Assembly (NCBI GenBank): GCA_963736875.1
Contig: CAVTQH010000003.1
Span: 129,756 to 193,755 of the forward strand
Direction: 5' to 3'
DNA length: 64,000 bases
Origin: Candidatus Amesbacteria bacterium
GTDB taxonomy: Bacteria > Patescibacteriota > Microgenomatia > CAZETR01 > Amesbacteraceae
Below, one piece after another: positions 7,444-44,900 of the stretch; the stretch's first letter is position 1; each line of letters begins with the position of its first letter. Made by a program: the position numbers and the translations under genes. Below the pieces are notes generated by a model, which was not told the DNA's origin, searched no databases, and saw nothing but the letters and a program-made list of their open reading frames with translations.

Positions 7444-7519
7444 TGGTGGACCCAGCGGGATTCGAACCCGCCGCCTCTCGCATGCCATGCGAACGCTCTA
7501 CCAAATGAGCTATGGGCCC
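7444..7519 (-). tRNA. tRNA-Ala (anticodon GGC), 76 nt with encoded CCA
   Basis: The reverse complement folds as a cloverleaf: acceptor GGGCCCA/TGGGTCC with G3:U70 (the Ala identity pair), D-stem GCTC/GAGC, anticodon stem TTCGC/GCGAG, loop ATGGCAT (anticodon GGC), T-stem GCGGG/CCCGC and T-loop TTCGAAT. It ends in ACCA. Confidence 0.85.
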
Positions 7520-7559
7520 AAGATTAAGGATCTATTTTAGCAAATTTATTGTGGACCAT

Positions 7560-7597
7560 GGGGGAATCGCACCCCCGTATCCGCAATGCGAATGCGG
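7560..7597. terminator. Two adjacent GC-rich hairpins between the end of the 7653..9722 (-) gene and the tRNA-Ala
   Basis: GGGGG-aatcgca-CCCCC at 7560-7576 and CCGCA-atgcgaa-TGCGG at 7581-7597. There is no U-tract, so this would not be a canonical intrinsic terminator. Confidence 0.25.
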
Positions 7598-7652
7598 CGC
7601 ACTACTACTATGCTAATGGCCCACTGAGACAGATATTATTTTACCAGAGGGG

Positions 7653-27454: not shown

Positions 27455-30400
27455 TTACGGGGTTCCGGTGACCGGGGCGATGCGGACAGCTCCTTCGTTA
27501 TAGACACCGCTGACTTGCTCCTGAGTAAGAGGGTAATTCCATATCTTTACCTCGTCGATTTTGCCTGAAAAATGTTGGTCCGCGCCAAGGTTATACGACC
27601 CAATACATAAAGAAGCTACTTCATCGCTCGGGTCACTTGTTTCTGATGCAGAATAAACCTGATTTCCATTAATATAGATTCTGAAAGTATCATTTATCGT
27701 ATCGAATACACAAACCGCATGGTACCAGGTTCCGGTTATACCATTAAATGAAGTTACATCGTGGTCATGATACGTACTCCCACCGATTCCAAATCCACAG
27801 TTTAGGTCGTCGGCGTCATTTATCTCTAAAAAGTAGCCATCGGCGCTGTCGCTTTTATTGACTAGTGTATCCCAGTTTCCGCTGCCCGGCCAGGCGTTTG
27901 CGTTAAACCATGCCGCAAGAGAGAATGAGCCGGTAAATTGTTGAGGATAATCATCAAAGATTTCTACATAATCCCCGGTACCGTCAAATGTTCCGCCATT
28001 ATTTATTTTTCCGGTTGCGGTTGTCGCATCTCCGCCCCTGACACCATGCATATTGTTTCCTGAAGAGTCTTTTACCTCTTCGGATGTCCCATCCCAAGAG
28101 CTCTCATCAAGTTTCCACCAGCCTACAGGTTTTCCCCGGTTATAGTCCCAGGCGATCTGGGCCGGGGTGCGGACATAATTGTATAACCTGGCTTCGTCGA
28201 TCTTACCTTTGACGGGATAAGATGCGTCACTGAATTCAATACCTCCGCTTCTGTTTTCCATGGCAACATATGTACCGACGTTGTCATCCAGATTGTCGAC
28301 TCTGATGCCGTCAAGATATATTTTGATGCCGCCGGCAGTACCGCTGCCGTCGTAGGTGGCTTCCACATGGTGCCATTGGTTAAGGGTGAAGGTGCCGGCG
28401 TCGAATCTGCGGCCGATCCTGGCACCGGCGCTGTAATCGTATAGAAAAAATTTGAGAGTGGGGGTACTGCTGATCTGGAGAGTGTATTCATTACCTTTAT
28501 CAACCATAATTTGGGCGCTGGCGCTTTGACTGAAGTTTACCCAGACAGAGACAGAAAAGGGGGAATCAGTGGTGCCGTTGCCGAAGGTGTGAAGATCGGT
28601 GTCGGAGGCTTGGGAACGATCATCTGTACCGTTGAAGTTGCCGGCAGAGCCAAATATTCCACTGGCCCAGTGGACAGGTCCGGTACCGTAAATAGTGGTG
28701 GGATAGTTATTACCCGAGCTGTCGATGTAGGAGGTGCCGGTATTTTCATCGAACTTCCATTCTCCGACCGGGGGGTTGCAGGTGCCGGTGTCTCCGGGAG
28801 GACAATATGAGCGGGCAGCGGAGGTCATGGTGGCAGAAGAGGAGGCGGTGGAAAGAACTCCCATAGAGGCGGCAAAGCCCTGGTTATAAAGAAGTTTTAC
28901 CTGGTCGGCTGTCAGGGTGGTGTTGAAGACTTTGACTTCGTCGATCAAACCGGGAAAACCGCCGGTCAAGGGAGTGTAGCTTCTGATACCGATAGTCATG
29001 TCAGCAGTTTCACTGATGGAGCCGGTATGGGTGCCGGTGGTTTCAAGAGCACCGTTGATGTACAGATTACCCTGTGAGGAATCGGAAGTGCAAGTTACAT
29101 GGTACCACTGCCCGGTGCTGATGGTGGTGGTGGAGTTCAGATTCTGGCCGTTGTAGCCGCATCTGACGGTATCATCACTGTAGACGTTAAGAAACCAGCC
29201 GTCGGAAGCGCTGTCCTGGTTGCTGACAAGATATTCAATGGCACCACTGTCGGTATCCCTTCTGATCCAGGCAGAGACGGTGAAGTCGTTGGTTGACAGC
29301 AGGTTCCATTCACCGGTAGCAACTGCATAATCATCGGTACCGGTGGTGCTTAATTTCATGGATTTTCCGTACTTGCCGTCGTTTGACCAGGAGGGGCAGG
29401 CATCATCAGCTCCCGTGGGGCAGGTGGTGCCTGTTCCGGCCAAATTAGCACCAGGGGTAGCCGTACCGGAGTTGTTGGCCGTATCACCATAACCTTCATC
29501 AAACTTGTACCAGAAAAGGGAACTGCCTACCGGACTTCCGGGGGCCGGATGGCCGGCATTCATGTCTTCGATTATCTGGGCGGGAGTGCGGGCGTAGTTA
29601 TAGATTTTGGCATCATCCATTTGACCAACATATTCATATCCTGATCCATCCCCCCCCAAGGCAAAGGTGTAAGTGGAATCGAAGGATGTGTTTATTAAAT
29701 CAGTCTCATCGGATGATGCCAGAAGGACTCCGTCTAAGTATATTTTTCCGGTATCTGTTGTGGCTGACCGTGACAAAGTGACCGTTAAGTAATGCCATAA
29801 TCCGTTCCATGTAACTATGGAGGGAGAGTAATAATAATCTCTCTGAGTGCCGTTGCCGGTCTGAAAAGCTATTCTGGTGTTTGAATAATCCCACCACAAC
29901 CAATAACCGGGGTCCGTCGCGCCACTGGCTGCGCCTTTGTATATTATTGTCATAGGGTGCGTAGTGGATGGATTGGGTTTTACCCATAAACCCAAAGTAA
30001 AACTTCCGGTAGAAGCATCAAGTCCACCATTATTTAAAGTCCATGTTCCGCCGGGATCTGTTTTTTCACCGTGTCCTCCTGTACTTGAATAGTCCACACC
30101 TCCTCCATATTTACCAGGTTTCCATTTGTAACCGGTCAAGGTTAAGTTATTACCTTTACCGCTGGTGTCATAAGCGGTACTACCGGTGTTTTCATCAAGT
30201 TTCCATTCAGCGATCGGTCCCGGAGCCCAGTTATAGAGCTGTCGGACTTCAGAGGGGGTAAAGGCACGGTTGTACAGACGGACTTCATCCAGAGTGCCGT
30301 CGTAATAATTAGAACCAACCCGGCCGATATAAAACTGATCGGCGTTGATAGCGGTATCGGATGTGACGGTAACCAAAGACCAGGTATTGGCAGAAAGGGT

Positions 30401-33400
30401 GGTACCGGCAACACCGTTAACATAGATTTGGGGGTTGGTGAAACCGTTGGCTGAAATAACACCCGAAGAGTTGGACTGGATGTTTGCGGAGGAGGAAAGA
30501 TTAATATAATAATTTGTAAGAGCATCGGGATTGGTCCAGAAAGAAACAGATTTAATGCTGTCCATTCCCGATACAGATACATCAGTAACCCGTACTTCAG
30601 CCTGATAAGCATATACGGTTGAACCTATTATGTTTAAAGCGCCGAAACTTACGGATAAAGATTGTAATTTACTCCATGTCCATCCGCCACTTGGTTCATC
30701 AAGTGTAGTGTATCCAGTCCACTGACAAGTAGTTCCGGCGGCATTCACATATCCCAATGAATCTCCACCATCATACGCAGATGCTCTTACTGATCCTGAA
30801 GTTCCCAAAGCAGAACGGCAGCCATAAAGTCGTAATTCTACCTGAGATGTTGGGCATCCGTTTGCAGGGGCGTTTGTTCCGCCTCCAGTTAAAGCACCAG
30901 GTTCCGACCCATTATTACAACTTGCACTCGTAGACGTTAAACTATCAAAAGCATCTGCATCATTACTCCAATCAGATTCTGTATCGGTGGGACCGCTATC
31001 GCTGGCATTAAAGTAGTAATCATGAGTCGAACCATCACAAGTACTAAGATATTGCGAAGATCCGGGAACATGTTCCGAACCGTTTGCGAATTTTCCGGAC
31101 GCAATTGCAACAGTATTGTTATCTGCCAGTGAATTGCCATTTCCCGAATAGTCAGTTCTTGATAAACCCGAAGTTGTTTCATCCATCTTCCAGTAACCAA
31201 CCAAACCATTGGAAAGGTAACTGTTGTCGGGGCCAAAGCGGGCAGAGGACCCGTCGGATGAACCGCGGGAGGTATAAATAGCTTTGATTTGATCAGCGGT
31301 TAACTGAGCGGCGTTGAAGCGGACTTCGTCCATGAATCCGGTAAGATAACCGGTTGAGTAATTTCCCAAAACCATTGATGAACCGCTTACGGTTGTTCCG
31401 GTTGTGACCGCCACATGCTGCCATTGGTTTGCAGTCAGGACCGGGGAAATTGTTGCCCGGCCGTTGATGTAAAAAGCGGGCGAGGTAAAACCTGTTGCGG
31501 ACAGATTTCCGGAGCCGTCTGTTTCTATCCTTGTACTTCCGCCAAGGTCTGCAAGAGCGATACTGGCAATTGTATTCGGTCTGATCCACATGGATACCGT
31601 TTTTATATTCATGTTCGATGCCAATGTAACTTTTGCAGCGGAGCCTTCAAAATAAAGACATTTACCCGATACACACATATCTTCTGTCTGCCAAGTGGGA
31701 AGGCCGCTACCTGCGAGTGTTCCGTTGATGGCATTTGAACCTGCGTTGGCCGAATCTGCGGTGGTTGTACCGTAGCCCTCATCCATCGGCCAGTAGGCAT
31801 TGGTTGCCGCGGGAGTCGGAGTCGGGGTCGGCTCTGTTTCTTCACCGGTGGGTAAACCGGCGTAAGGAACCCGGGAGGAATCGGCCGTTGGAGAGGTTGA
31901 AGGTGCCCCGGAATCGGTATAATCAACGTGGATTCTTCCGTTGCCTCCGTCACCCCCGCCGGCAATGTTTGTACCTTCGCCTCCGTCACCCCCGCCAAGA
32001 GAGGTTACCAAACTCGTTCCCAGTGTATCGGTGATTGTTTTAATAAGGACCGAACCTCCGGCACCGCCTCCTCCGTTACCGCCGTGCGTTGTTGCCTGAG
32101 TTGTCGTTTGACCCGTTGCCTGAATATAACCGTCATTGGTAGAATCCAGGGTAACCGTATTGGCACTGATATATACAATTCCTCCGCCGGTTCCTCCGTT
32201 TGTGCCGTCGGCACCATCATCTCCTGCTCCTCCACCTCCGCCGCCGGAGCCAAAAAAGATAGTGGTCAGCGCTGCCGAGCCATATGTTCCTCCTCCTCCG
32301 CCACCGGCACCGGTTCCGTTTACGTTGGCAACTCCGCCTCCTCCGGCGCCCTGGGTAGATCCGCTTCCTACACTGCCACCACCGCCGGTTCCGTTACCAC
32401 AGCCCGAGCCGCCCGAACCGGCGCTTCCGGCATTACCACCTGCCATACCACCCGATGCGCCTCCCGATGTGTCCAGACACGCACCACCCCCCCCGCCGCC
32501 GGCAGTTCCCGCACTGCCTCCGGTGCCGCCGGTACCGCCGGTGCCGCCGGGAGGGCTGGGATCATCACTATTACTGCCTCCTCCGCCGCCGCCGCCTGCA
32601 TATCCTCCCCCTCCTCCTCCGGCACCGCCTCCGGTGGAGTTATCATCCGATCCGGCTGAACCTCCTCCTCCGCCTGCACCGGTAGCTACCCCGTCGGCAG
32701 CTCCGCCGGGATTACTTCCCGCTGCCCCGTCGCCGGCTCTTCCGCCGCCCCGGGATTCACCGCCGCTAGATCCGTTACCTCCGCGGCCTGATGCTGTTCC
32801 GTCGTAACTTTCTCCTGTATTTCCGCCTATTTCTGTCAGAGTACCGGCAGTTCCCCCCGCATATCCCAAGGAATTTGCGTTGATGGTGCAGGCTGTTGCA
32901 GTACAACCCGAGGCGTTAACGGTACCTGTTGCCCGAAACGCCATCACACCACCTCTGAAATTAGTTGTTCCGTCCCATGCCGACGGGGTGAAGTCGGTTC
33001 CGGAGTTGGAGAGAGTAACACCGGTATAATTGGGAATCCTTTGGACCATTATTTTATCAGCCGTGCCGTTGTATCCGTTTACGAGGTTTCTGTCCAAAGT
33101 CAGGGTGGCGGTGGAGATGGTGGTAATCCGTCTGGTTTCGTATTGCCCGGCATTTGTTCCGCGTAAATTAATAATTAAAATTTCGTCTCCGACAGCCAGA
33201 CAGCCGGAACTCGGGGTGGATGAAAGGACAATCTGATTTGTTCCGGATGACCGGTTTTCTGTAACGGAGTAATTGACCGCGTCGCCGCCGTCGGAACATG
33301 ATCTTCCGGAAATAGAAGTAGCGGTATTAATGTTGGTATCGGCGGTTATACTTATCGAGCCATCCCTGCCGCTTCCGATGTTTATGCCCGTGGGATTGGA

Positions 33401-33832
33401 AGAGAGGGTGGTTGTTCCGTCTGTAGCTCCGGAATTGCCGTAATACATATACATGGTTGTGGCACCGGCGGGCAGGCTTGTGTAAGTAACCCAGACCACT
33501 GTTTTTCCTGATGAAGCGCTGCTGACACAATATTCCTCGTAGTAATCAAGAACAGTGGTGCCGTCGCTTTTGGTAAAGATCAGGTCATCACAGTCTGACT
33601 GGAGTTTGGTGTCATTGATCAAGGTATAAGTATCCACGGCGACCATGATGGTATAAGTGGCTGATGAGCTGTTATTGGTAATGGAAATTGCCTGACGATA
33701 AAGCCAGCTTGAGTTATACCAGGCGGCTCTGACTTTGGAAGTACGGAAGAAGATTAGAGAAATCAGGGCAAAGACCAGAACCAGAGAAGATGTGCGGGAA
33801 AGCAGGCGGATTAGTTGTTTACGTTTTTTCAT
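27455..33832 (-). CDS. Giant secreted/anchored surface protein (2125 aa) with a DUF2341-like N-terminus, multiple LamG/Laminin_G_3 (concanavalin-like) domains and a ~300-aa Gly-rich low-complexity region
   Basis: N-terminal TM/signal followed by 'AAWYNSSWLYRQAISITN'. There are repeated 'DEVR(I/L)YN(R/Y)A.T..E(V/I)' Laminin_G_3 hallmark motifs. The shared linker 'PAQIIEDMNAGHPAPGSPVGS' is also found in the 2032- and 2904-aa proteins. The Gly-rich block spans ~32000-32800. Confidence 0.8.
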   Translation of the reverse strand: MKKRKQLIRLLSRTSSLVLVFALISLIFFRTSKVRAAWYNSSWLYRQAISITNNSSSATYTIMVAVDTYTLINDTKLQSDCDDLIFTKSDGTTVLDYYEEYCVSSASSGKTVVWVTYTSLPAGATTMYMYYGNSGATDGTTTLSSNPTGINIGSGRDGSISITADTNINTATSISGRSCSDGGDAVNYSVTENRSSGTNQIVLSSTPSSGCLAVGDEILIINLRGTNAGQYETRRITTISTATLTLDRNLVNGYNGTADKIMVQRIPNYTGVTLSNSGTDFTPSAWDGTTNFRGGVMAFRATGTVNASGCTATACTINANSLGYAGGTAGTLTEIGGNTGESYDGTASGRGGNGSSGGESRGGGRAGDGAAGSNPGGAADGVATGAGGGGGSAGSDDNSTGGGAGGGGGGYAGGGGGGGSNSDDPSPPGGTGGTGGTGGSAGTAGGGGGGACLDTSGGASGGMAGGNAGSAGSGGSGCGNGTGGGGSVGSGSTQGAGGGGVANVNGTGAGGGGGGTYGSAALTTIFFGSGGGGGGAGDDGADGTNGGTGGGIVYISANTVTLDSTNDGYIQATGQTTTQATTHGGNGGGGAGGSVLIKTITDTLGTSLVTSLGGGDGGEGTNIAGGGDGGNGRIHVDYTDSGAPSTSPTADSSRVPYAGLPTGEETEPTPTPTPAATNAYWPMDEGYGTTTADSANAGSNAINGTLAGSGLPTWQTEDMCVSGKCLYFEGSAAKVTLASNMNIKTVSMWIRPNTIASIALADLGGSTRIETDGSGNLSATGFTSPAFYINGRATISPVLTANQWQHVAVTTGTTVSGSSMVLGNYSTGYLTGFMDEVRFNAAQLTADQIKAIYTSRGSSDGSSARFGPDNSYLSNGLVGYWKMDETTSGLSRTDYSGNGNSLADNNTVAIASGKFANGSEHVPGSSQYLSTCDGSTHDYYFNASDSGPTDTESDWSNDADAFDSLTSTSASCNNGSEPGALTGGGTNAPANGCPTSQVELRLYGCRSALGTSGSVRASAYDGGDSLGYVNAAGTTCQWTGYTTLDEPSGGWTWSKLQSLSVSFGALNIIGSTVYAYQAEVRVTDVSVSGMDSIKSVSFWTNPDALTNYYINLSSSANIQSNSSGVISANGFTNPQIYVNGVAGTTLSANTWSLVTVTSDTAINADQFYIGRVGSNYYDGTLDEVRLYNRAFTPSEVRQLYNWAPGPIAEWKLDENTGSTAYDTSGKGNNLTLTGYKWKPGKYGGGVDYSSTGGHGEKTDPGGTWTLNNGGLDASTGSFTLGLWVKPNPSTTHPMTIIYKGAASGATDPGYWLWWDYSNTRIAFQTGNGTQRDYYYSPSIVTWNGLWHYLTVTLSRSATTDTGKIYLDGVLLASSDETDLINTSFDSTYTFALGGDGSGYEYVGQMDDAKIYNYARTPAQIIEDMNAGHPAPGSPVGSSLFWYKFDEGYGDTANNSGTATPGANLAGTGTTCPTGADDACPSWSNDGKYGKSMKLSTTGTDDYAVATGEWNLLSTNDFTVSAWIRRDTDSGAIEYLVSNQDSASDGWFLNVYSDDTVRCGYNGQNLNSTTTISTGQWYHVTCTSDSSQGNLYINGALETTGTHTGSISETADMTIGIRSYTPLTGGFPGLIDEVKVFNTTLTADQVKLLYNQGFAASMGVLSTASSSATMTSAARSYCPPGDTGTCNPPVGEWKFDENTGTSYIDSSGNNYPTTIYGTGPVHWASGIFGSAGNFNGTDDRSQASDTDLHTFGNGTTDSPFSVSVWVNFSQSASAQIMVDKGNEYTLQISSTPTLKFFLYDYSAGARIGRRFDAGTFTLNQWHHVEATYDGSGTAGGIKIYLDGIRVDNLDDNVGTYVAMENRSGGIEFSDASYPVKGKIDEARLYNYVRTPAQIAWDYNRGKPVGWWKLDESSWDGTSEEVKDSSGNNMHGVRGGDATTATGKINNGGTFDGTGDYVEIFDDYPQQFTGSFSLAAWFNANAWPGSGNWDTLVNKSDSADGYFLEINDADDLNCGFGIGGSTYHDHDVTSFNGITGTWYHAVCVFDTINDTFRIYINGNQVYSASETSDPSDEVASLCIGSYNLGADQHFSGKIDEVKIWNYPLTQEQVSGVYNEGAVRIAPVTGTP

Positions 33833-34554
33833 AGTATTTCATTTTCCAACTGGTTTAATACTTCGAATTTTAAAGACTTGCGGATTGTCTGATACTTGTC
33901 TGAGGGTAACAGTGTATTAAGGTCCTCATTTATAGCAGTGCCGGTAACCTTTTGTTCGATAAAGGATTTAAGAGCAACCAGAAATTCTTTTACCGGAAGA
34001 CCGGTTCTTTCTTTGATGATACCTGTATCGTATTTGTACCCGCTGATAAAAAAGTGGTGGATGTCGTAAATATCCCTGCCGGCGATTGAACCATGTTTTT
34101 CGTATCTGTCCAGAACAGCTACCAACTTGTGAGCGAACATGGTTTCTACCGTTTGACAAATCAGGTAACGGTCTATTTCGGATAAATAAGAGGGGAGATG
34201 TTTATCAGACAGAAACGGGTGATTGACGGCGTCGATCTTTATGCTATTTCTTTGATTGTTTTGGGCTTCATATCGGACTACATATTGGATCGAATTGATA
34301 CTTTGGTCTTTAATTTCCAGGTTGAGTGTTTTAAACGTTTTTTCCAGATGGTTTTTTATAGTTTTAATATTTGCTTCTTTTTGAATATCGAAATCAAGGT
34401 CGACAGAAAACCTGTCCAGCCGGCCAAGCATGGAAGCGCAGGTACCACCTTTAAAAATAAGAGAATTAGTTAAAATGTTATTGTCGGCAATTTCGATTAA
34501 CAGACGGTAGAGCTGACCCCGATGGATGGCGTCTGTGGCTTTGGGCAGTATCAT
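33829..34554 (-). CDS. abiEii: AbiEii/AbiGii-family nucleotidyltransferase toxin (DUF1814)
   Basis: 'LIFKGGTCASMLGRLDRFSVDLDFD' matches the AbiEii KGGTAL...RFSEDLDF motif. Its stop overlaps the start of the 2125-aa gene by 4 nt. A sampled 60-mer is ~38% GC. Confidence 0.8.
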   Translation of the reverse strand: MILPKATDAIHRGQLYRLLIEIADNNILTNSLIFKGGTCASMLGRLDRFSVDLDFDIQKEANIKTIKNHLEKTFKTLNLEIKDQSINSIQYVVRYEAQNNQRNSIKIDAVNHPFLSDKHLPSYLSEIDRYLICQTVETMFAHKLVAVLDRYEKHGSIAGRDIYDIHHFFISGYKYDTGIIKERTGLPVKEFLVALKSFIEQKVTGTAINEDLNTLLPSDKYQTIRKSLKFEVLNQLENEIL

Positions 34555-35084
34555 ATATATCCAATCTCCTTTCTTAATCGGGTAATCTTATCCCAGTCAA
34601 TTTTCGTGGTGTTGTCGAAGTGGTATCGGGGGTTGAAATAAAGCATATCGGCAATTGCCCTGTCGGTGGTAGCCTCAAGATATTTTCCGTTATTCACAAC
34701 TCCCGATGTTTGAAATAAGTATTTGTCTCCCAGCTGGCGGCTCAGATATGAGTAATCACCGATTTTAATCTGACGGTTTTTGGTGGAGCAAAAAGTTATA
34801 GGTTCAATTTTTTGAAAAATGACGCCATTTTTTGCCAGGACGGTTTCAGTACTGAGATAGGAGTACTGATGCAGTGCCGTTGTGCCCAATTCTACCGGGT
34901 CAAGTTTTTCAAAAGGCACGACAGAATAAAAACCCCGGTAAATCGGAATCAGAACGCCTTTTTTGACATACCGCCCCAGCGCAGAATACAGAGTTCTTTT
35001 ATTTGATATGCTCCAAAGCAGTTCCAGGTCTTTGGTATGAAATAACCTGCGATCCAGCTTGAGAAGTATATCTATCCTATTCAT
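34551..35084 (-). CDS. abiEi: AbiEi-family antitoxin / transcriptional regulator
   Basis: N-terminal wHTH-like 'RTLYSALGRYVKKGVLIPIYRGFYSV' fits the AbiEi_4 'rlvk.G.l.rv.rGvY' pattern. It overlaps abiEii by 4 nt (ATGA). Confidence 0.7.
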   Translation of the reverse strand: MNRIDILLKLDRRLFHTKDLELLWSISNKRTLYSALGRYVKKGVLIPIYRGFYSVVPFEKLDPVELGTTALHQYSYLSTETVLAKNGVIFQKIEPITFCSTKNRQIKIGDYSYLSRQLGDKYLFQTSGVVNNGKYLEATTDRAIADMLYFNPRYHFDNTTKIDWDKITRLRKEIGYI

Positions 35085-35112
35085 ATATGCCTAGTATAAT
35101 ATAACATAGTTA

Positions 35113-38100
35113 TTAGAATCTGACGGCTCCGTTACTATAATCTGTTTTGACCTGCTCCGGAGTCAGGGCGTAGTTAAATATTTTGACCTCGTCGATCTGG
35201 CCGTCATAATAATATAACCAGCTTCCGTTATCTCTGGCACCCAGTCCAAATTTAACACTATTACTATAACCCGATGAAAGGATTGTTGTGTCGGAATTTA
35301 TTAAAGATCCGTCAACATAAATCTTAGTGGTGTTAGTGCTATGATCTCTGATCCCAACAAGATGGTGCCACGTATTATTATTCACGCTACCACCGTCGGC
35401 TTGAGATGTTGTGCTATCGTTTCTGACCTGAAAATAGATATGATTGGAATCATCTGAATTCAGATATAGTCCATAACCATTACATCCCCCCGTAAGGAAA
35501 CATTTTCCGGCAATGGCCTTATAGGTTCCTCCGGAAGCGTCTGTTTTTATCCAAGCGGATATTGAAAAAGAATCCGTGAAGTCAAGAGCAGACTGATCAC
35601 CAATATCAACATAATCACCAGCCCCGTCAAAGTCCAGGGAAGCGGAGTATTTGCCGGTGGTTCCACCGTTCCACATTTCGGTCGAGACGCCGGAACTGCA
35701 ACTTCCAACCGACCTGCCGGTATTGGGAGTGATGGTACCGTTGTATCCGGAAATTCCCCGCGGGTCGGCTTTAGGAGCGGTATTATTGAGAGTTGTGCCG
35801 GAACATTCATCAAAACGGTAGTGGGCGACCGGTTCCCCCAGGTTGTAGTCCCAGGCGATTTGGGCGGGGGTGCGGGCGTAGTTGTAGATTCTGACTTCAT
35901 CGACTAAACCATTGTAGCCAAAGTTATAGTAACCCGGAAATCCGTCTTGGGCGGATGCAATACCTTTGGTGTATGTAGTTTGTCCAAAACTGACTGCTTG
36001 TGAAGTCTCCAGTTTTCCATTTATGTAAATGTATACTATGTCATTGGTATAGTCGATAACAGTGGAGAAGTTGGTCCATTGATTTAGGGGTATAGCTGAA
36101 GACGAAAGCGCAGTTTGAGCTGAGTCAGACGATTGACTTTCGGCGGATACTCTTAATTTATAAGATTCACCGTCATCAATTTCGATCTGAATTCCATTAT
36201 CAGAATTAGAATTTATAAAGCTATTAAAGATTCCATTCCCCCATTGAATCCACGATCTTGGTTTAATCCACCCATTAACTGTAACAACTGAAGCGCCATT
36301 AATCATATTGTTAAGAGTGTCTGTGCCTAGATCTACCTCACTATAGTCGGAGAACGATGTTGCCCCCAGATCTATAGAAGAACCGAATTTCCCATGTGAC
36401 CAGGTTGGCATTCGGCCACTATTGTTAACTGTCAATGTACCATTTTTTTCATTACCACTCGTATCATATGTAGACTGTCCCGTATTTTCATCAAATTTCC
36501 ATTCTGCTATGGGTGGATTGCAGGTGTCGGTATCACCGGGAGGGCAATATGAGCGGGCAGAGGAAAACATTTCAGCACTGGACGAAGCGGTGGAAACAGC
36601 TCCAAAAACAGCTGACTGGCCCTGGTTGTAAAGTTGTTTGATCTGATCAGCGGTGAGAGCGGAGGAAAAGATCTGAACTTCGTCTATCTTGCCGTCGAAA
36701 TAATCGCCGTCTACATTGTCTCCGGTACCGGGATTGGCTCCAATTAAGGGTTTGACGTTAGAGGGATTGGAAATTGTACCTGCGGCAGTAACAGTGTCTT
36801 TTAACGCGCCATTCAAATAGATTTTTGAATCAGTTCCGTCAAATGTGCCCACAATGTGATACCAGGTTCCGGCGGATATTTCGGAAAGGTTGAAACCGGC
36901 TTTTTGGTAGGCACTATTGATATAAAAATAAGTTTCAATTTTACCGCTTTCCACTTGATTGGGCAGAAGACCCCAGCCGCCGCTATTGTTGTTGCTCATG
37001 ATGGTGGTTTCAGTCAGACCAGTGGGTATAGTATCAAAGTTTACCCATGCCGAAAGGGTAATGGCGTTACTGATTTTAAGCGAGTCAACCGGGCCAATGG
37101 ACAGGTAATCGTCTGTACCGTCGAAGCTTAAAGCTTTACCGAATTTTCCGTCGTTTACCCAACCGGGGCAGGGGACTGTTCCGGAAGCAGGACAAGATTG
37201 ATTTACAGCTCCGAGATCACCGTTTATAGAAGTTCCTCCGCTGCCGGAATTATTTGCAGTATCTCCATAACCTTCATCAAAATTCCAATCTCCGACAGCC
37301 GAACCAACGGGGGATCCCGGTGCAGGATGGCCGGCATTCATGTCCTCGATGATCTGGGCGGGAGTGCGGGGGTAGTTGTAGATTTTGACTTCGTCAATGA
37401 CGGCATCCGTGCTATTATCGGGATTAATTTCAAAAGCTGATATATAAAGAGGTTGGGTGTTGGAATAAATATTTCCGCTGGGGCTGGTATTTTCGTCTAT
37501 AAATACACCATCCACATAATGATTGAGGGTCTCCCCGTCGTAGGTACAGGTGGAGTAATACCAGGTATTTAGATTGATTGTGTGGGCGGAATTATTATAT
37601 TTAGTGGATCCGTTATTGGATACTTCGCAATAAACTTCATAAGCGTCACCCGCCACATTACTTATGACCATCATGTCGTAGGTATAATTTGAAGAGCTGT
37701 TGCTTTTTTGAATGATTACTTTTGACCAGTTAGCCGGCATGGATTTTAATTTAAACCAGGCAGAATAGGTGATGGTTTTGGGATTCAATGAGGTATTATG
37801 TTCTACTGTGATGTATTCTCCACTATTGTTGTCGTATTCCAAATCTAAGGCACCTCCATATTTGCCGGTAACCCAATCATTACTTTCAATATTTTGAATC
37901 GTACCGGTAAAACCGTTACCCGATTTATCATATGCAACCGTACCGGTATTTTCATTAAGGTCCCAATATCCCACCGGTCCCGGAGCCCAGTTATATAATT
38001 GCTGGACTTCGGCAGAGGTAAGGGCGCGGTTGTAGATGCGGGTTTCATCAATCTTGCCATCGAAACCCTGAGTTCCGTTATACCCGGCACCGATACTGAT

Positions 38101-41100
38101 GTTGCCGTTGCCCGTCAGAAAACCGCTATTGGAGGTTTGACTGTCGAGGTAACCATTAACAAACAACTTAGTGGCAACCCCATCGCTAGTGACAGTTACC
38201 AGGTACCAGGAGTTGGTTGTTAGAGTGGTGTTTGATGTGCCGGTATTGGTACCACCATCCAGGCTGTATACCAGTTTACCGGAGTTGGTGGCTGATGCTC
38301 CGAGAAACCAGTCAAAAGACGGAGACGAACCCCGGGCTATAATCATACGTTGGTTTGAATCAAGAGTGTCTGCTTGTACCCAAGCAGAAACGGAGATTGG
38401 TATGGTAGTAGCGTGGGTCTGTTCAAGTCCTATAGACGATACAGGTTCGGAAGCAGCATATTTTCGTATAAACACATAATCATACTTAGATTCTGCAATT
38501 TTCGTTGAATCATCATCATGCATAATTGCAATATTTCCAGTACAGGAGAAATCGTTAAGATTTGCGTAAACCGTCTGTAATCCTGATCCGGAATAAGCCT
38601 GTTCAGGAGTGAGTCCCCAGCTTTGAGTACCAGCCATTTGATAAAAATATGATGCGCTATTATATCCGTAAATATTTCCACAAAAATAAATTCCATGAAT
38701 TTCTTTAAGAACTGATGGCTGGAAACTTGCCTGGACTTGATACGATCCACTTGTTACCGCAAATGAGCCAGTAATCTGGTATCCATGATCCATACCAAAG
38801 GCAGACGAAGTATTTTCCGTAAGAGTAATTACACTGCCTGATACAGTATATGAGCCGTCTCCTCCTCCTACTTTTGTATAACCCGGATCAGAATCGAATC
38901 CATCAAAAAATTCAAAAGTATTTGAACTATTTGATTGTGAAGATACTCCACTATTTCCGTAGTACATGATAATGGTCGATGAGCTATAAGCGGGTATTGA
39001 ATTAATTTCGACCCAAACATTAGCTGATACTGAATCCGTTTTACTCTCTAACCAATAGTCAAGATTTGCCCCAGCATTATCGGTAAAGCGTATATCGTCA
39101 AAATCAGACTGCATATCAGAGTCATATAGAATTGATAATTCTAATTGGTAATTTGTTAAGTTGGAGATGTTACTATTGTTAATAGTTATTAATCTACGTT
39201 GAGTCCAGCTTGATAGTTCTGATGCCCAGGTGTAATGAATCGGAACCCTTATTGCAGAGTTTGTGGCCACCCGGTCGTTCGTGCCATCAAGATCAATAGC
39301 ATTACCGAATTTTCCATTTCCCGAAGTTGCATTATCGTACCATTCTGCATGATTATTGTTTCGGGAAAAATCGCAGGCATCATTCGTTGCATCGCAAGTA
39401 TTGGAAGTACTTTCGTCCATCTTCCAATAAGCAGCAAGATCATTATTGAGAATGTATTCTGTTGAGGATCCGAAGATCTCACCGGCGTTGTTGAAGTCAA
39501 CTTTGACCTGATCTGCGGTTCTGGCAAAGGGATAGATTTTAATTTCATCAAGTGATCCCAACCAGGGGCTACCTGCTCCGTCTCCGTCAATTCCCATATA
39601 GAGAGAATCGGTATTAGCGAGCGTGGAGGCAGCCGAAATTGCATAATCAGTACCAACTGGTATACCGTCGATATAAAGCGTGAGACTTGAGGTACCGGTT
39701 TTTACGGCAACTACATGGTGCCATTTATTGTCATCATATGACGCGGCTGTTGAAGTTACCGAATCATCAGGTCCCCAGGTTGAATCATCGTCTACGGCAA
39801 AAGTGATGTCACCATCTACTTCCATTATAAGTTTGTAGCCTCCGTCGGTACCTGTTGTCGAGTAGTATTTTGAAAGAATCGTATCGGCTCCCGATGGGCT
39901 TTCCGGATTTTTGAACCAGGCGGAAATCGAAAAGGAATCAGACGCAGTGAAATCAATAACACTACTGTCACCAACGGCTACAAAATCATTTGTTCCGTCA
40001 AATGAAAGGCATTTATCAAATCTGCAGTCCGCCCCATCTTTCCAGGTGGGACATGCCGAATTTCCGGGACATGAATTTGACTCGGCTAAATTTCCATTTA
40101 GGCTTGATCCTCCACTTCCTGAGTTGTGTGTAGTATCTCCGTATCCTTCATCAAAATTCCAGTAGGCGACAGGGTTCGGGGATTTTTCTTCAGAATCCAG
40201 GGAAACTGTTGGTTCAGTTGAAAGTTGTTGACGGATAATCCAGTTGTCAGTGTATGAGTATTCACCAGAATCGTAATGGACAGCACCGGGTTTTAGCGGG
40301 GTTTCTGATGAGTAGTTGGAATTATAAATCGAAGTCCAGGTATTTGAATCTACTGCTTTGTAGTAATAGTAGGCGCCGGTGGCTTTAAGTACAACCTTGA
40401 TATCATACCAGGTACCCACAGTATAACTACCGCTACCTACCCGATTATTACCGTCTTCATAAATGTCAAATGTTCCGGCATCTAAAAAGATTGCATAAAC
40501 CAAGTCACTGCGGTTGGAACCTGATCCGCTATCGTGCCACCCGATTACTGATCTGGCACCGCTTGTTGCCTTGAACTTTGCCTGAAAGGCAAGATCGGCA
40601 GCCCTTGCCTGGGTGCTGGTTGCATATACATAGGAATCCCAAGCATCGGAATTATTTAGAAGCCATAGGTATTCGTCCTGCGTTGTCGTACCTCCGTCTA
40701 CGGTTATCTTGGAAGTATCAATACTTGTTCCTGCAAAATCGTGCATATAAGTAAAAAAGCTTTCAGGATTAGCCATGATACTGGAAGCATCTGAATTACC
40801 ATAGTAGACGTAAAGGATTGTACTGTCGTTAGCCAGGGAACTGAATTTGATCCAGACTGTCGGACTGTTTGGTACGGTACAGTCAACCCAAAAAGGATCA
40901 ATAATTGGATTGGAGTTGGTATCATTAACACGGATATCGCTGCAGTCACTATTAATCTGGCCGCTGGTCAGTGCACCCAGGGAGAAACCGTAGGTGTAAT
41001 TTGATTGTGTTCCTGCGGTATTTGTTATCAGTATTTTTTTGCGGTATAACCAGCTATCATTCCACCAACCGGCACTGACGTTTTGGGGAGCTTTGGTTAG

Positions 41101-41211
41101 AAGAAGGAATAGGAGGGGAACCAGAAGGATGATAATTACTGCCTCAATTCTGATAATGTTTCGACGCAGAATGTTATACTTTGATGTTTTTGTATGCATA
41201 TTGAAAATCAA
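35113..41211 (-). CDS. Giant surface protein (2032 aa), paralog of the 2125- and 2904-aa proteins, with many LamG/Laminin_G_3 domains
   Basis: N-terminal 'IEAVIIILLVPLLFLLLTKAPQNVSAGWWNDSWLYRKKILITN'. Motifs include 'DETRIYNRALTSAEVQQLYNWAPGPVGYW', 'DEVKIYNYPRTPAQIIEDMNAGHPAPGSPVGS' and 'YCPPGDTDTCNPPIAEWKFDENTG'. Its start overlaps the stop of the upstream ORF by 4 nt. Confidence 0.8.
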   Translation of the reverse strand: MIFNMHTKTSKYNILRRNIIRIEAVIIILLVPLLFLLLTKAPQNVSAGWWNDSWLYRKKILITNTAGTQSNYTYGFSLGALTSGQINSDCSDIRVNDTNSNPIIDPFWVDCTVPNSPTVWIKFSSLANDSTILYVYYGNSDASSIMANPESFFTYMHDFAGTSIDTSKITVDGGTTTQDEYLWLLNNSDAWDSYVYATSTQARAADLAFQAKFKATSGARSVIGWHDSGSGSNRSDLVYAIFLDAGTFDIYEDGNNRVGSGSYTVGTWYDIKVVLKATGAYYYYKAVDSNTWTSIYNSNYSSETPLKPGAVHYDSGEYSYTDNWIIRQQLSTEPTVSLDSEEKSPNPVAYWNFDEGYGDTTHNSGSGGSSLNGNLAESNSCPGNSACPTWKDGADCRFDKCLSFDGTNDFVAVGDSSVIDFTASDSFSISAWFKNPESPSGADTILSKYYSTTGTDGGYKLIMEVDGDITFAVDDDSTWGPDDSVTSTAASYDDNKWHHVVAVKTGTSSLTLYIDGIPVGTDYAISAASTLANTDSLYMGIDGDGAGSPWLGSLDEIKIYPFARTADQVKVDFNNAGEIFGSSTEYILNNDLAAYWKMDESTSNTCDATNDACDFSRNNNHAEWYDNATSGNGKFGNAIDLDGTNDRVATNSAIRVPIHYTWASELSSWTQRRLITINNSNISNLTNYQLELSILYDSDMQSDFDDIRFTDNAGANLDYWLESKTDSVSANVWVEINSIPAYSSSTIIMYYGNSGVSSQSNSSNTFEFFDGFDSDPGYTKVGGGDGSYTVSGSVITLTENTSSAFGMDHGYQITGSFAVTSGSYQVQASFQPSVLKEIHGIYFCGNIYGYNSASYFYQMAGTQSWGLTPEQAYSGSGLQTVYANLNDFSCTGNIAIMHDDDSTKIAESKYDYVFIRKYAASEPVSSIGLEQTHATTIPISVSAWVQADTLDSNQRMIIARGSSPSFDWFLGASATNSGKLVYSLDGGTNTGTSNTTLTTNSWYLVTVTSDGVATKLFVNGYLDSQTSNSGFLTGNGNISIGAGYNGTQGFDGKIDETRIYNRALTSAEVQQLYNWAPGPVGYWDLNENTGTVAYDKSGNGFTGTIQNIESNDWVTGKYGGALDLEYDNNSGEYITVEHNTSLNPKTITYSAWFKLKSMPANWSKVIIQKSNSSSNYTYDMMVISNVAGDAYEVYCEVSNNGSTKYNNSAHTINLNTWYYSTCTYDGETLNHYVDGVFIDENTSPSGNIYSNTQPLYISAFEINPDNSTDAVIDEVKIYNYPRTPAQIIEDMNAGHPAPGSPVGSAVGDWNFDEGYGDTANNSGSGGTSINGDLGAVNQSCPASGTVPCPGWVNDGKFGKALSFDGTDDYLSIGPVDSLKISNAITLSAWVNFDTIPTGLTETTIMSNNNSGGWGLLPNQVESGKIETYFYINSAYQKAGFNLSEISAGTWYHIVGTFDGTDSKIYLNGALKDTVTAAGTISNPSNVKPLIGANPGTGDNVDGDYFDGKIDEVQIFSSALTADQIKQLYNQGQSAVFGAVSTASSSAEMFSSARSYCPPGDTDTCNPPIAEWKFDENTGQSTYDTSGNEKNGTLTVNNSGRMPTWSHGKFGSSIDLGATSFSDYSEVDLGTDTLNNMINGASVVTVNGWIKPRSWIQWGNGIFNSFINSNSDNGIQIEIDDGESYKLRVSAESQSSDSAQTALSSSAIPLNQWTNFSTVIDYTNDIVYIYINGKLETSQAVSFGQTTYTKGIASAQDGFPGYYNFGYNGLVDEVRIYNYARTPAQIAWDYNLGEPVAHYRFDECSGTTLNNTAPKADPRGISGYNGTITPNTGRSVGSCSSGVSTEMWNGGTTGKYSASLDFDGAGDYVDIGDQSALDFTDSFSISAWIKTDASGGTYKAIAGKCFLTGGCNGYGLYLNSDDSNHIYFQVRNDSTTSQADGGSVNNNTWHHLVGIRDHSTNTTKIYVDGSLINSDTTILSSGYSNSVKFGLGARDNGSWLYYYDGQIDEVKIFNYALTPEQVKTDYSNGAVRF

Positions 41212-41963
41212 AATTTGAATGCAGAATCCTGGTTATATAACGTTTGGACTTGCGGTTGAGTCAGGGCATAGTTGAAAATTTTGAGGTCATCCATTTGTCC
41301 ATCATAAAAGTTACCCGGGTTTCCATCTTGTCGAATCCAGTAGCCTATCATTAAAGGAGCGGTAGTATTGTCTATAGTGGAAAAACTGCCACCGGCTGTT
41401 GGTGTTTTATCGGCTCGTAGCCCATCGATATATAGTTTAATACTGGAATGTTCACTAATACCACCATCATAGGCGGCAACGATATGGTGCCAGCTCCCTT
41501 CTGGGAATGCTGTATTTGTTAATCTCCCGATATATCCCCCGGAAGATTGATCATAAATAGTGAAATTTAAAAAATCAGAAGAGTTTATATATAACTGGAA
41601 TTCCATTTTAGTATCTCCGGTGGTTTCATCGTCTTTACTTACTATCCAGACATTTGTTGCGTCGTTAATTTTCACCCAGGTGGAGATAGAGAAAGGGAAA
41701 TTATTACTGCTGTTTCCAAAAGAAAAAATATCGTTATCAGGTACCGTTACGATATCATCCGTTCTATCGAAACCCAGAGAAGCACTGTATTTACCAGTTG
41801 TACCGTCATTCCACATTTCGGTTGAAACTCCGGAGCTGCAGGAACCTACAGAAGTGTTTCCTGAAGCACCGGGAGTAGATGGTACCGCTGTAGCCGGTGG
41901 TACTTCTGTCGGCTTTGGGAGCCGTATCGTGGAGGACGGTGCCGGAACATTCGTCAAAGTCAT
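41208..41963 (-). CDS. Single LamG-domain ORF that is almost certainly the frameshifted C-terminal end of the 2904-aa gene
   Basis: Its 'VGSCSSGVSTEMWNDGTTGKYSASLGFD' is homologous to the in-frame continuation of the 2032-aa paralog after '...DFDECSGT...'. The 2904-aa ORF ends in an unrelated out-of-frame tail 'SRCFRKHFCRFLQLRSFNRNVE'. Confidence 0.5.
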   Translation of the reverse strand: MTLTNVPAPSSTIRLPKPTEVPPATAVPSTPGASGNTSVGSCSSGVSTEMWNDGTTGKYSASLGFDRTDDIVTVPDNDIFSFGNSSNNFPFSISTWVKINDATNVWIVSKDDETTGDTKMEFQLYINSSDFLNFTIYDQSSGGYIGRLTNTAFPEGSWHHIVAAYDGGISEHSSIKLYIDGLRADKTPTAGGSFSTIDNTTAPLMIGYWIRQDGNPGNFYDGQMDDLKIFNYALTQPQVQTLYNQDSAFKF

Positions 41964-44900
41964 ACTGGGCTACCGGTGCTCCACGGTTATAGTCCCAGGC
42001 AATCTGGGCAGGAGTGCGGGCGTAGTCATAAAGAACGAAGTTATCAAGTTGGCCACCCAACCAATTTAGGTTAGCTGATACATTGCCACCGAAATATAAA
42101 CTTTGATCCGAGTTTTTGATATTACCGGAGACGTCTGTCGAACCGGTGATGCGGGATCCGTTAACATATAAATATAAGTTTGATCCGCTCCTGACAAATT
42201 CCAAGTGATACCAGGTGTTAACAGAGAGAGCTGGAGTATATGAAACGGTATATACTGTATCAGAGGTGTTGCAGTAGTAGCAGATAATATCGTCTGATGA
42301 TATGGATGAAATCATACATCTATAACTAACATAAGGTGAAGCATTATTCAGTTTATGGAACAGGTAATCTGCAACACCCTTTACACTTGGGAGTTGGTCA
42401 AGCTTAAACCAGATAGCGGCCGTCATATCATTACTTGGAGTGAGCAAGTCGTTATCTTCAATAGTGACATGATCGTTGATACCGTCAAAATTTAGACCGC
42501 TTCCGTTTTTTGTATTTGTCCAAGCGGGGTCATCCGTTCCGACTGAAGAGGTGTCACCCAGGACACCGCTGAGATTATTACCAGAAGAATCGTTTGTTAT
42601 TTGACCTGTATTTTCGTCAAATTTCCATTCACCTACAGGCGGGGAGCAGGGGTCGGAGGAGCCGGGGATGCAATATGCGGCGGAGGCGGAGTTGGAGGCA
42701 ATAGAGCCACCGGTTAAGCTTGAGGTGTCAGAGAGGACACCCATGACAGCAGACGAGCCCTGGTTATAAAGGAGTTTGATCTGGTCAGTTGTTAAAGCCG
42801 AGTTGTATATTCTTAATTCATCTAATACTCCATCAAAATACTCACTGTCTGAAGAATTATATAATCTACCGATCATCAAGTATTGCCCGGTTGTTTCCCA
42901 TGTTCCCGTTGACGTATCGGTTTCACTATTATCTAAAATTCCGTTGATATAAATACTGTCGGTGTCCAAACTCGTATCTCTTACAAACACGATATGATAC
43001 CAATTACCCGATGATAATGTTGATGTTGAAGAGATTGAAGATGAAGCGGTATCAGGTCCATAGTTTACTGCTACTTTATTGTCGTTAGCGACTCTAATAA
43101 GATAAAAATTTCGACTACAGTTTGTATCTCCATCTCCACTATCGCAATCGTCGTATCTGAAGATATTTTGGTAAAGTCCGGTGCTTTCCAGATTTATCCA
43201 GGCCGAAAATGTCATAGATTTGCTTTGATCCATGTGGATGGAGGAGCTATCACCCGCATTTACCCAATCCGAATCTGATCTTTCAAAATCAAGCCCTTTG
43301 TTAAATTTCCCGTGATTTGTCCAGGACGGACAAGTAGCATCACCGGGACAGGATCCGTACAGATTTCCATCCAGAGAGGTTCCGCCACTGCCGGTGTTGT
43401 GGGCGGAGTCGCCGTAGCCTTCATCGAATTCAAGATGCAGGACCGATGAGCCTATGGGAGATCCGGGTGCCGGATGCCCGGCATTCATGTCTTCGATAAT
43501 CTGTGACGGTGTACGGATGTAGTTGTAGATTTTGAGGTCGTCAATGGCTCCGTTGAAGTGGTCGGAGAATGTGTTTGTCCCAATTAAAAAATTATTTCCT
43601 GTATCATTGTCTCTTGTACCTGTCATCGATTGAGTGGTTAGGAATGGGTATAAAACACCATTTTTGTAGTATTTAACACCGCTGCATGTACCAGATCCGT
43701 CCCAAGAAAAGGATATATAATCCCATTGATTTGCCACGGGTTCTCCACCGCCAGTAACTGGTGCGTCGCAGGTTAGAGATGTCCCATCTGAATTGACATC
43801 AAACTGATATTTGTTTGAGTTTAGTAACACAGACCAACCTGTACTATCACCCCCGGTTTTATCAAGGATGTTATAGGTAATAATTTCTTCAGGTTTTATC
43901 CATGCCGATATAGTATAGGCCGGTAAATAATCTATACTGGCATCACTTGGTACAGTAATATAATCCTGGGTTCCTGCATATTTCGTGGCTGATCCGAACT
44001 TACCTTGAGTCCATGAAACGTTGTTGGTAAAAGATGTGGAATTATTACCGTTTCCGGAGGAGTCATAAGCCGAAGTTCCTGTGCCTTCATCCATCTTCCA
44101 ATATCCAACCGGTCCCGGAGCCCAGTTGTAAAGCTGACTGACTTCGGCGGGGGAGAGGGCGCGGTTATAGATACGGACCTCGTCGATCTTGCCGTCCCAG
44201 CCTTGGGTACCGTTGTAGGCGGAGCCGATACTGATATCACCGCTACCGGGTAGGACACCGGAATTATTGGTTTCCGAGTCATACTGGCCATTGATATACA
44301 ATTTGTTTTTAACACCATCGGATACCAAAGTTACCAGATTCCAGCTACCGGTGGAGAGTGTAGCATTGGATGTGCCGGTATTGGTAAGACCGTCAAGGGT
44401 ATACCAGAGTTTTCCGGAACTGGTGGCTGAAGCACCTATTCCCCAATCAAAGGAAGGAGAAGAACCACGGGCAAGGATCATTCTTTGAGAGCTATCTAAA
44501 GTTGTGGCGTTCACCCAAGCCGAGAAGGATATTGATTCACGTAAAGCGCCGGTTTGTTCCTGACTGAACGATGCAGTCGGTTCAACGGACGCAGTTTTAA
44601 CCGGACCTTGCCATTTATTGATGTAATCATCATTACGGTCTGACTGATAGATATATTTATCTTTCCAGGTCAATCCGGCAACTTCGGTGAGGGTGTGACC
44701 ACTTGAATCAAACCAATCTGTAACGATTGGTGAACTCCAGTTAGAAATGTCGATCAAATATACACGATTGCCATTGGCACCATATGATCCTGATGTACCG
44801 GCGAAAAGGTAGCCATAGGCGTACGTAAGTCCTTGTCCTCCCCAGTCAAATCCGGAGAGGGTATCCATATTTATCGAAGAACTGGAATTGTTGGAAATGA

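Follow-up and report, generated by a model that had tools for sequence, protein, structure and literature searches.

The DNA analysed here, a stretch of 64 kb from contig CAVTQH010000003.1 of Candidatus Amesbacteria bacterium (referred to below as the window), contains a pair of genes for an AbiEi antitoxin of 177 amino acids (aa) and an AbiEii toxin of 241 aa, which are located between two giant genes coding for LamG proteins of 2032 and 2125 aa. Judged from its sequence, this pair is probably a functional and self-contained AbiE module, which belongs to a Patescibacteria-specific clade and lies in a co-directional array of giant LamG genes for surface proteins, within a highly compact genome. 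All genes of the locus are on the minus strand of the window, where they follow one another in the order 2032-aa open reading frame (ORF), spacer of 28 nucleotides (nt), 177-aa ORF, 241-aa ORF and 2125-aa ORF (Table 1). Both junctions of the pair are covered, at 99.8% identity, by an independent Logan contig of 2272 bp from run ERR12040022 (L001), and therefore this arrangement is not a chimera of a single assembly. No second AbiE copy was found elsewhere in the window.

A preliminary description of this locus, made from the sequence alone, had recognised an AbiEi/AbiEii pair between the two giants, with an abiEi start 28 nt past the stop of the upstream giant and with overlaps of 4 nt at both the abiEi/abiEii and the abiEii/2125-aa junctions. 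The identity of the pair is upheld by PF08843, by the PADLOC models, by intact motifs and by fold matches, and its placement by the LamG/DUF2341 genes on either side, while the spacer (35085–35112) and the two ATGA overlaps can be read directly in the sequence. The same description also proposed that the pair is a horizontally acquired cassette, inserted into an operon with its coupling preserved; this proposal fared less well and is considered after the evidence for the module itself.

The toxin AbiEii

The search with PF08843 that had been suggested for the 241-aa protein gave a score of 78.9 bits (E = 7e-22), which is above the gathering score of 22.5 bits. The protein is also matched by 26 PADLOC AbiEii models, the best of them (4.8e-25) over residues 11–237. 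The toxicity of AbiEii from Streptococcus agalactiae requires four motifs, viz. I (hG[G/S]), II ((R)..DhD), III (KLxAxxxR) and IV (+DxxD), and the residues mutated in that protein were G49/G50, R63, D67, D69, K173, R180 and D192 (PMC3985639). In the AbiEii of the window these motifs are present as F34-K-G36-G37 (motif I), R48 and D52-L-D54 (motif II), K143-L-V-A-V-L-D-R150 (motif III) and R160-D-I-Y-D164 (motif IV), all of which are invariant in an alignment of 13 homologues (A1). The string KGGT...RFSVDLDFD, from which the toxin was initially recognised, is present as K35-G-G-T38 and R48-F-S-V-D-L-D-F-D56. The residue S50 in this string (R48-F-S50-V-D52) is likewise invariant in the 13 homologues and, based upon the spacing of R63, T65, D67 and D69 in the S. 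agalactiae toxin, it occupies the position of the phospho-acceptor T65, which led to the reclassification of AbiE as a type VII system (bioRxiv 10.64898/2026.01.19.700257).

A structure model of AbiEii (predicted local distance difference test score, pLDDT, 93.8; predicted template modelling score 0.89) was matched by Foldseek, with a probability of 1.00, to JHP933 (4o8s/4ok0), MenT3 (6y5u, 6j7s) and MenT4 (6y56). According to this predicted structure, AbiEii is a member of the DUF1814 / pol-beta-like nucleotidyltransferase fold family. A total of 4159 homologues of AbiEii were found, of which the named examples are from Patescibacteria. The nearest full-length homologue is 62% identical, and the C-terminus of AbiEii falls inside the natural length range of these proteins.

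The antitoxin AbiEi

The 177-aa protein is matched over residues 4–170 by the PADLOC model PDLC02255 (E = 2.1e-30), and 14 further PADLOC AbiEi models match it as well. Its AlphaFold model, which was derived from 27 homologues, has a pLDDT of 93.1. The top two matches of this model in the PDB are the chains of 6y8q, the AbiEi of S. agalactiae (probability 1.00, template modelling score, TM, 0.52, 184 columns), and the next match after them is Rv2827c (1zel, TM 0.57). Both AbiEi and AbiEii are full length relative to their homologues. In comparisons with two cassette relatives described below (L160 and L159), the ratio of nonsynonymous to synonymous substitution rates (dN/dS) was 0.07–0.08 for AbiEi and 0.10–0.11 for AbiEii, with dS greater than 1. 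As these ratios are about 0.1, both genes have been maintained by purifying selection.

A promoter- and operator-like element in front of abiEi

The spacer before the ATG of abiEi reads TAACTATGTTATATTATACTAGGCATAT. Nine cassettes taken from different genomic contexts were aligned over 60 nt surrounding their first ATG (A3). The alignment contains an invariant TATA.TA core, which forms a -10-like TATA[CAG]T box at a fixed distance of 8 nt from the ATG (6 nt in one cassette); the conservation ends at about -22, and nothing is kept farther upstream. A run of 17 nt, TATGTTATATTATACTA, is identical between the spacer and L160, even though synonymous sites are saturated. In L159, where an unrelated gene precedes the cassette, DNA homology sets in immediately behind the stop of that gene, about 20 nt ahead of the abiEi ATG, and this point marks the left edge of the cassette. 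When both strands of the 64-kb window were searched for the pattern TATANTANNCATATATG, a single site was found (0.01 expected by chance). As the pattern matches both strands at this same site, it is part of an imperfect palindrome of 26 bp, which extends over both the -10-like box and the start codon of abiEi. Similar inverted arms are visible by eye in L075, L153, L155, and L156.

These features point to a probable promoter of the cassette's own within the 28-nt spacer, and they make the palindrome a plausible operator for AbiEi. Given a -10-like box at 8 nt from the ATG and the lack of a Shine-Dalgarno sequence, the abiEi mRNA is probably leaderless or near-leaderless, which is the simplest reading. 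For abiEii, a clear AAAGGAGA is found 11 nt before the ATG; most other genes in the window are without a Shine-Dalgarno motif. The arrangement consisting of TATAnT, 8 nt and ATG inside a palindrome provides a candidate signature for this cassette and, now that it has been defined, it could be used to locate cassette edges.

Boxes resembling a -10 element (GATAAT, TATACAT, GATAAC, and GATAAGAT) were also observed about 0–12 nt from the start codons of several other window genes, with examples near the starts at 4182, 7653–9722, 9816, 20424, and 23714. Leaderless expression may thus be common in this genome.

Proposed mode of action and comparison with known systems

The mode of action proposed here is based upon homology to AbiE of S. 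agalactiae and MenAT of Mycobacterium tuberculosis (PMC3985639, PMC7450476, PMC11375011, bioRxiv 10.64898/2026.01.19.700257). The pair would be expressed as a bicistron from the promoter in the spacer, in which translation of abiEii would use the ATGA overlap together with the GGAG site in front of this gene. By analogy with S. agalactiae AbiEii and MenT, the toxin would add nucleotides to the 3' ends of tRNAs and arrest translation. AbiEi would neutralise it, probably by inducing auto-phosphorylation of S50, and would repress its own promoter via the palindrome described above. During phage infection, or once the locus has been lost, AbiEi would no longer control the toxin, and growth would be arrested by the freed protein. 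The junctions without any spacer are best taken to reflect genome compaction in a variable region of surface-protein and defence genes, and not a recent precise insertion.

The best characterised counterpart of this pair is AbiEi/AbiEii of S. agalactiae (Dy et al. 2014, PMC3985639; Arrowsmith et al. 2026, bioRxiv 10.64898/2026.01.19.700257). There too, the antitoxin gene precedes the toxin gene with an overlap of 4 nt, the antitoxin is a two-domain winged helix-turn-helix protein (6y8q being the best fold match to AbiEi here), and inverted-repeat DNA is present at the promoter (here, at the probable promoter in the spacer). The S. agalactiae toxin is likewise a DUF1814 protein with motifs I–IV, in which a Ser/Thr residue is found two residues before DxD (T65 there, S50 here). 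At the sequence level the two systems are very distant, with 15% identity for AbiEi in a structural alignment and with no toxin chain of S. agalactiae among the PDB matches of a phmmer search. Additionally, the S. agalactiae transcript begins 26 nt before the ATG and carries a ribosome-binding site, and the promoter has two 11–23-bp repeats separated by 27/3 bp, whereas in the locus described here the -10-like box is 8 nt from the ATG, the start codon is covered by a single palindrome of 26 bp, no ribosome-binding site is present and the toxin stop overlaps the next gene.

In M. tuberculosis, the pairs MenA3/MenT3 (Rv1044/Rv1045, TakA/TglT) and MenA4/MenT4 (Rv2827c/Rv2826c) also consist of COG5340-type antitoxins and COG2253/DUF1814 toxins (PMC7450476, PMC11375011, PMC7205606). 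The structures of MenT3 and MenT4 match the toxin model and that of Rv2827c the antitoxin model; the RFSxDLDF active-site string of MenT4 aligns with AbiEii, and S78 of MenT3 is the counterpart of the S50 phospho-acceptor position. The mycobacterial proteins are, however, larger (about 290 aa for the toxins and 293 aa for Rv2827c) and only 14–17% identical to those described here. By sequence (E = 2e-8; 6e-11 in a profile search) as well as by fold (TM 0.58–0.63), no solved structure is closer to the toxin than that of JHP933 of Helicobacter pylori (4o8s/4ok0), a putative nucleotidyltransferase with 18–19% identity, which differs in being located in the plasticity zone of a pathogen and in having no characterised cognate AbiEi.

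Pairs of AbiEi and AbiEii have previously been noted in Patescibacteria genomes, as a known part of the small set of defence systems carried by episymbiotic Patescibacteria (bioRxiv 10.1101/2024.03.08.584096). That study lists genes only and contains no giant-gene setting, overlap with a giant gene or -10/palindrome element of the kind found here. The present results confirm that an intact AbiE module is present in a bacterium of the candidate phyla, for which the family had thus already been reported. The locus is mildly unusual only, in that it is embedded without a spacer between giants and has a -10 box and palindrome over its start codon.

A number of observations weigh against reading the pair as a functional and self-contained module. 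The first of these is that AbiEi scores under the thresholds of the curated models, viz. 19 bits (E = 0.0015) against a gathering score of 25 for PF13338 (AbiEi_4) and 43.2 bits against a cut-off of 150 bits for NF047376 (TAA_AbiEi) of NCBIfam. Hence, of the two hidden Markov model checks proposed in the preliminary description, that with PF08843 was positive and that with PF13338 stayed below threshold, and the identity of AbiEi rests upon the PADLOC model and the fold. As a precomputed PF13338 match is present in only 5 of the 120 listed AbiEi homologues, these curated models under-cover the clade, and the Pfam and NCBIfam models can be said to under-call the AbiEi of this group of Patescibacteria. 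Second, no -35 element could be recognised upstream of abiEi in the window copy. Third, a weak -10-like box, GAAAAT, is present inside abiEii at 8 nt before the ATG of the downstream giant, and the 2125-aa gene may therefore have a start signal of its own. Fourth, the GC content drops at 33832 from 0.49–0.50 to 0.39–0.41; this sharp step, which is seen only at the downstream junction, is compatible with different histories of the cassette and the downstream giant. Lastly, AbiE of S. agalactiae gave no phage protection in Escherichia coli, and a role in defence is thus not assured for any member of the family.

Relatives of the cassette and their genomic contexts

Searches with AbiEi gave closer relatives of the cassette than searches with AbiEii. 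The closest relative is found on two contigs, L160 (ENA ERZ27247859) and L158 (JGI 3300027897), where AbiEi is 84%, AbiEii 77% and the DNA 76% identical to the window copy. In these contigs, the cassette lies about 33 nt behind a gene that ends in a Laminin_G_3 domain and shares the terminus KIFNYALT..EQVK...GAV.F with the 2032-aa gene. The terminal LamG domain of this gene shares 32% identity overall with the C-terminal end of the 2032-aa protein, to which it is no closer than to a paralogue. The DNA homology of L160 extends about 100 nt into the upstream LamG gene, which is due to the conserved terminal LamG motif. We have rejected this extension as evidence for orthology of the flanks, the match being 67/111 as compared with 63/108 for a paralogous LamG ORF of the window. 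As dS for L160 exceeds 1, the adjacency to a LamG gene, if it has been inherited, is old. Overall, L160 hints at an old association of the cassette with LamG-terminated genes.

In the next relative, L159 (JGI 3300037137; 77% identical), the cassette is behind an unrelated gene. Cassettes of 53–62% identity are parts of islands that also carry HicA, AAA_14-DUF4143 ATPases, type I restriction-modification systems and second AbiE pairs; some of them adjoin dnaA/dnaN, and several are downstream of large Peptidase_S74/G2 proteins. In all, relatives of the cassette were found in eight other, mostly unrelated contexts. The mobility of the cassette over evolutionary time, which is implied in the preliminary description, is thus confirmed, and the family clearly moves on this time scale.

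Some features of these contigs may be recorded separately. Large ORFs with Peptidase_S74 and/or Peptidase_G2 domains are present upstream of AbiE in L076 (2–1960) and L156 (3–2375). These two are intramolecular chaperone, tail-fibre-like domains. Genes for AAA_14/DUF4143 ATPases, often in several copies, are repeatedly found beside AbiE of other Patescibacteria, in an island-like pattern, in L069–L074, L076–L078, and L153–L157. The contigs L158 and L160 are 98.5% identical up to position 1182 of L158, and in the region 1066–1254 of L158 (1165–1632 in L160) the abiEii of L158 switches after residue 38 to the AbiEii-like sequence GGTCLKKCFFETYRFSEDLDF, while L160 runs colinear with the window past the point of divergence. 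The end of L158 is probably a chimera formed at the contig end, the other possibility being a recombinant toxin.

Was the cassette recently inserted?

Instead of an old constituent of the array, the pair could be a mobile AbiE cassette that was recently and horizontally inserted precisely between two giants that were already neighbours and co-transcribed, with the junctions kept or trimmed in such a way that their coupling survived. We consider such an insertion rather unlikely. Its occurrence had been argued from base composition, and the GC content of abiEii (0.394) and abiEi (0.416) is indeed lower than the window mean of 0.492, and is bounded downstream by the sharp step described above. 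However, no such step is seen at the upstream junction, since the last 500 nt of the upstream giant have a GC content of 0.395–0.41. Further, the GC content at third codon positions (GC3) is 0.43–0.455 for the cassette, and it is as low or lower for the 2032-aa gene (0.40) and the 251-aa LamG ORF (0.37). Thus, the cassette is AT-richer than the window as a whole (0.39–0.42 vs 0.49), but the dip extends into the upstream giant and is not specific. With the upstream giant and the 251-aa LamG ORF equally AT-rich, GC content was rejected as evidence of acquisition, and horizontal acquisition is not supported on these grounds.

The occurrence of related cassettes in many unrelated contexts also agrees with an insertion, and an unoccupied orthologous site would provide the most direct support for it. 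The N-terminal 330 aa of the 2125-aa protein were used as a query against genome contigs, metagenome contigs and a protein database. No close orthologous locus was found, the negative result of the protein search being weak because this search missed even the giant of the window itself; the best matches, from Woesebacteria, Microgenomates and other Patescibacteria metagenome-assembled genomes, are 49–55% identical. Relatives of this N-terminus were present in 141 distant loci (about 1.9 Mb), none of which has a close AbiE pair nearby, but these loci are at most 55% identical and mostly share one domain only. In the best distant relative (L002, about 50% identity), a giant is followed after a spacer of 51 nt by another giant, with no cassette between them. 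This locus was rejected as an empty site, as its upstream giant has neither a Pfam domain nor homology to the 2032-aa gene. A junction lacking the cassette would read ...GGAGCCGTCAGATTCTAA joined directly to ATGAAAAAACGTAAACAAC.

No integrase, transposase or flanking repeats were found around the cassette. The 6-nt direct repeat ACTATG, which is present at both of its edges, was considered as a target-site duplication and rejected, as its chance level is about 0.05 and its left copy is part of the sequence conserved in the cassette. A phage or plasmid origin was likewise rejected, since no relatives were found in IMG/VR, among the INPHARED phages or in the PLSDB plasmids. The preliminary description had regarded conservation of the cassette at this position across the lineage as an argument against insertion, and such conservation is seen in part, as the closest relative (L160) also lies behind a LamG-terminated gene and its dS of more than 1 points to an old association. 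The proposal of an inserted cassette with preserved coupling is only partly supported, and a recent and precise insertion has a small probability on these data.

Possible coupling of the module to the downstream giant gene

Among 9 contexts, only this locus has an abiEii stop that overlaps the ATG of a giant gene; in the relatives, 22–268 nt are found at this place. The 4-nt overlap between abiEi and abiEii, by contrast, is a trait of the family, as it is also found in L069, L076, L153, L156, L158/L160, and L159 and in abiE of S. agalactiae (PMC3985639), and overlaps of 4–16 nt are frequent among same-strand neighbours in the window. Hence, of the two overlaps from which a preserved coupling had been proposed, that with the giant gene is specific for this locus, while the other is typical of the cassette family and short overlaps are routine in the genome. 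Scans for sigma-70 promoters and terminators around the cassette gave counts that were no higher than for shuffled sequence, with no minus-strand match at the junctions. Since no terminator, clear promoter or Shine-Dalgarno sequence was found in front of the 2125-aa gene, RNA polymerase probably reaches this gene by read-through from the upstream giant, from the abiE promoter or from both, and its translation may involve reinitiation after abiEii.

From these observations it could be supposed that the module has been functionally co-opted, so that the AbiEi-controlled promoter and toxin-coupled translation gate the production of the 2125-aa protein, or that the module guards the hypervariable island of giant genes against deletion. 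In favour of this supposition, which appears improbable to us, the ATG of the giant overlaps the toxin stop in this locus only, with no evident signals of its own other than the weak box noted above. Further, relatives of the cassette are found downstream of large co-oriented genes of surface type, viz. a LamG gene (L160), Peptidase_S74/G2 genes (L076, L156) and an ORF that is at least 645 aa long (L069). Moreover, AbiE stabilises plasmids (PMC3985639) and a homologue of AbiEi has regulatory roles beyond its own pair (PMC8436566). However, genes for surface proteins and for defence both crowd the variable regions of small genomes, where their co-location is to be expected, most window genes lack a Shine-Dalgarno sequence in any case, and the window contains no other copy of the operator-like motif. 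There is accordingly only a slight chance that this is a clade-specific AbiE module tied to giant surface proteins, in which the output of the 2125-aa protein follows the toxin-antitoxin switch or the array is protected by the module. The ideas of addiction and of surface-protein expression being tied to defence, as put forward in the preliminary description, are speculation. If the coupling were true, an episymbiont would have a giant surface protein under the control of a toxin-antitoxin switch, which would bear on how reduced genomes regulate their host-attachment proteins and keep hypervariable islands.

Finally, it is extremely improbable that the pair is a decaying or inactive remnant of AbiE, for although AbiEi is below the Pfam/NCBIfam thresholds and the nearest full-length homologue of AbiEii is 62% identical, both ORFs are full length with intact catalytic motifs, both structure models are of high confidence, dN/dS is about 0.1 and the upstream element is conserved. 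A functional and self-contained module thus remains the best explanation for the pair.

Layout of the locus and other features of the window

The coordinates of the module and its neighbours are given in Table 1.

Table 1. Features of the AbiE locus, in window positions
Feature	Position	Strand	Evidence
abiEi, 177 aa	34551..35084	-	ORF, PADLOC AbiEi model, fold match, dN/dS
abiEii, 241-aa DUF1814 nucleotidyltransferase toxin	33829..34554	-	PF08843, PADLOC, conserved residues, fold, dN/dS
Spacer of 28 nt from the stop of the 2032-aa gene to the abiEi ATG, carrying the conserved upstream element of the cassette	35085..35112	-	
-10-like box TATACT, 8 nt 5' of the abiEi ATG, probable promoter	35093..35098	-	Alignment of nine cassettes
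Imperfect 26-bp palindrome centred on CATATATG, candidate AbiEi operator	35073..35098	.	Repeat search, two-strand motif match
GGAG Shine-Dalgarno core within AAAGGAGA, 11 nt 5' of the abiEii ATG, inside the 3' end of abiEi	34566..34569	-	
ATGA overlap, abiEi stop / abiEii start	34551..34554	-	Sequence reading
ATGA overlap, abiEii TGA stop / ATG of 2125-aa gene	33829..33832	-	Sequence reading
Upstream neighbour, 2032-aa protein with 6 LamG domains and DUF2341, terminal LamG ending ...KIFNYALTPEQVKTDYSNGAVRF*	35113..41211	-	
Downstream neighbour, 2125-aa protein with signal/transmembrane N-terminus, DUF2341, Gly-rich region and 6 LamG domains	27455..33832	-	

The LamG domains of the two flanking giants, six in each, are of the Laminin_G_3 type and occur together with DUF2341. 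The stop codon of the 2032-aa ORF is a TAA (35113–35115). The 2125-aa protein begins with MKKRKQLIRLL..., a typical signal/transmembrane sequence, and its ATG is the only start that preserves MKKRK. Farther upstream on the same strand, additional giants are encoded, viz. a 2904-aa protein with LamG domains, a 2993-aa protein with a beta-helix and an 806-aa protein with Peptidase_G2.

Several other observations were made on these genes. In the 2125-aa protein, about 300 aa (residues ~330–640; window ~31900–32850, minus strand) form a low-complexity region rich in Gly (GGGAGG...), the DNA for which reaches a GC content of 0.70 as compared with 0.49 for the window. The 2904-aa LamG ORF (41806–50520) and the 251-aa LamG ORF (41208–41963) overlap by 158 nt in different frames of the minus strand, with the LamG domain of the latter starting just beyond the stop of the former. 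A giant gene that was split or frameshifted may account for this overlap, and so may a sequencing error or a later start of the small ORF. A Peptidase_G2 protein is encoded at 50917–53337, within the array of giant genes. No Rfam match was found in or near the cassette, and the only such matches in the window are two tandem tRNA genes on the minus strand (7447–7519 and 7552–7622). Lastly, an ORF of 364 aa without a Pfam match (62855–63949, minus strand) has a GC content of 0.61 and a GC3 of 0.745, which are far above those of the other genes, and it may be of foreign origin, or the frame may not correspond to a real gene.

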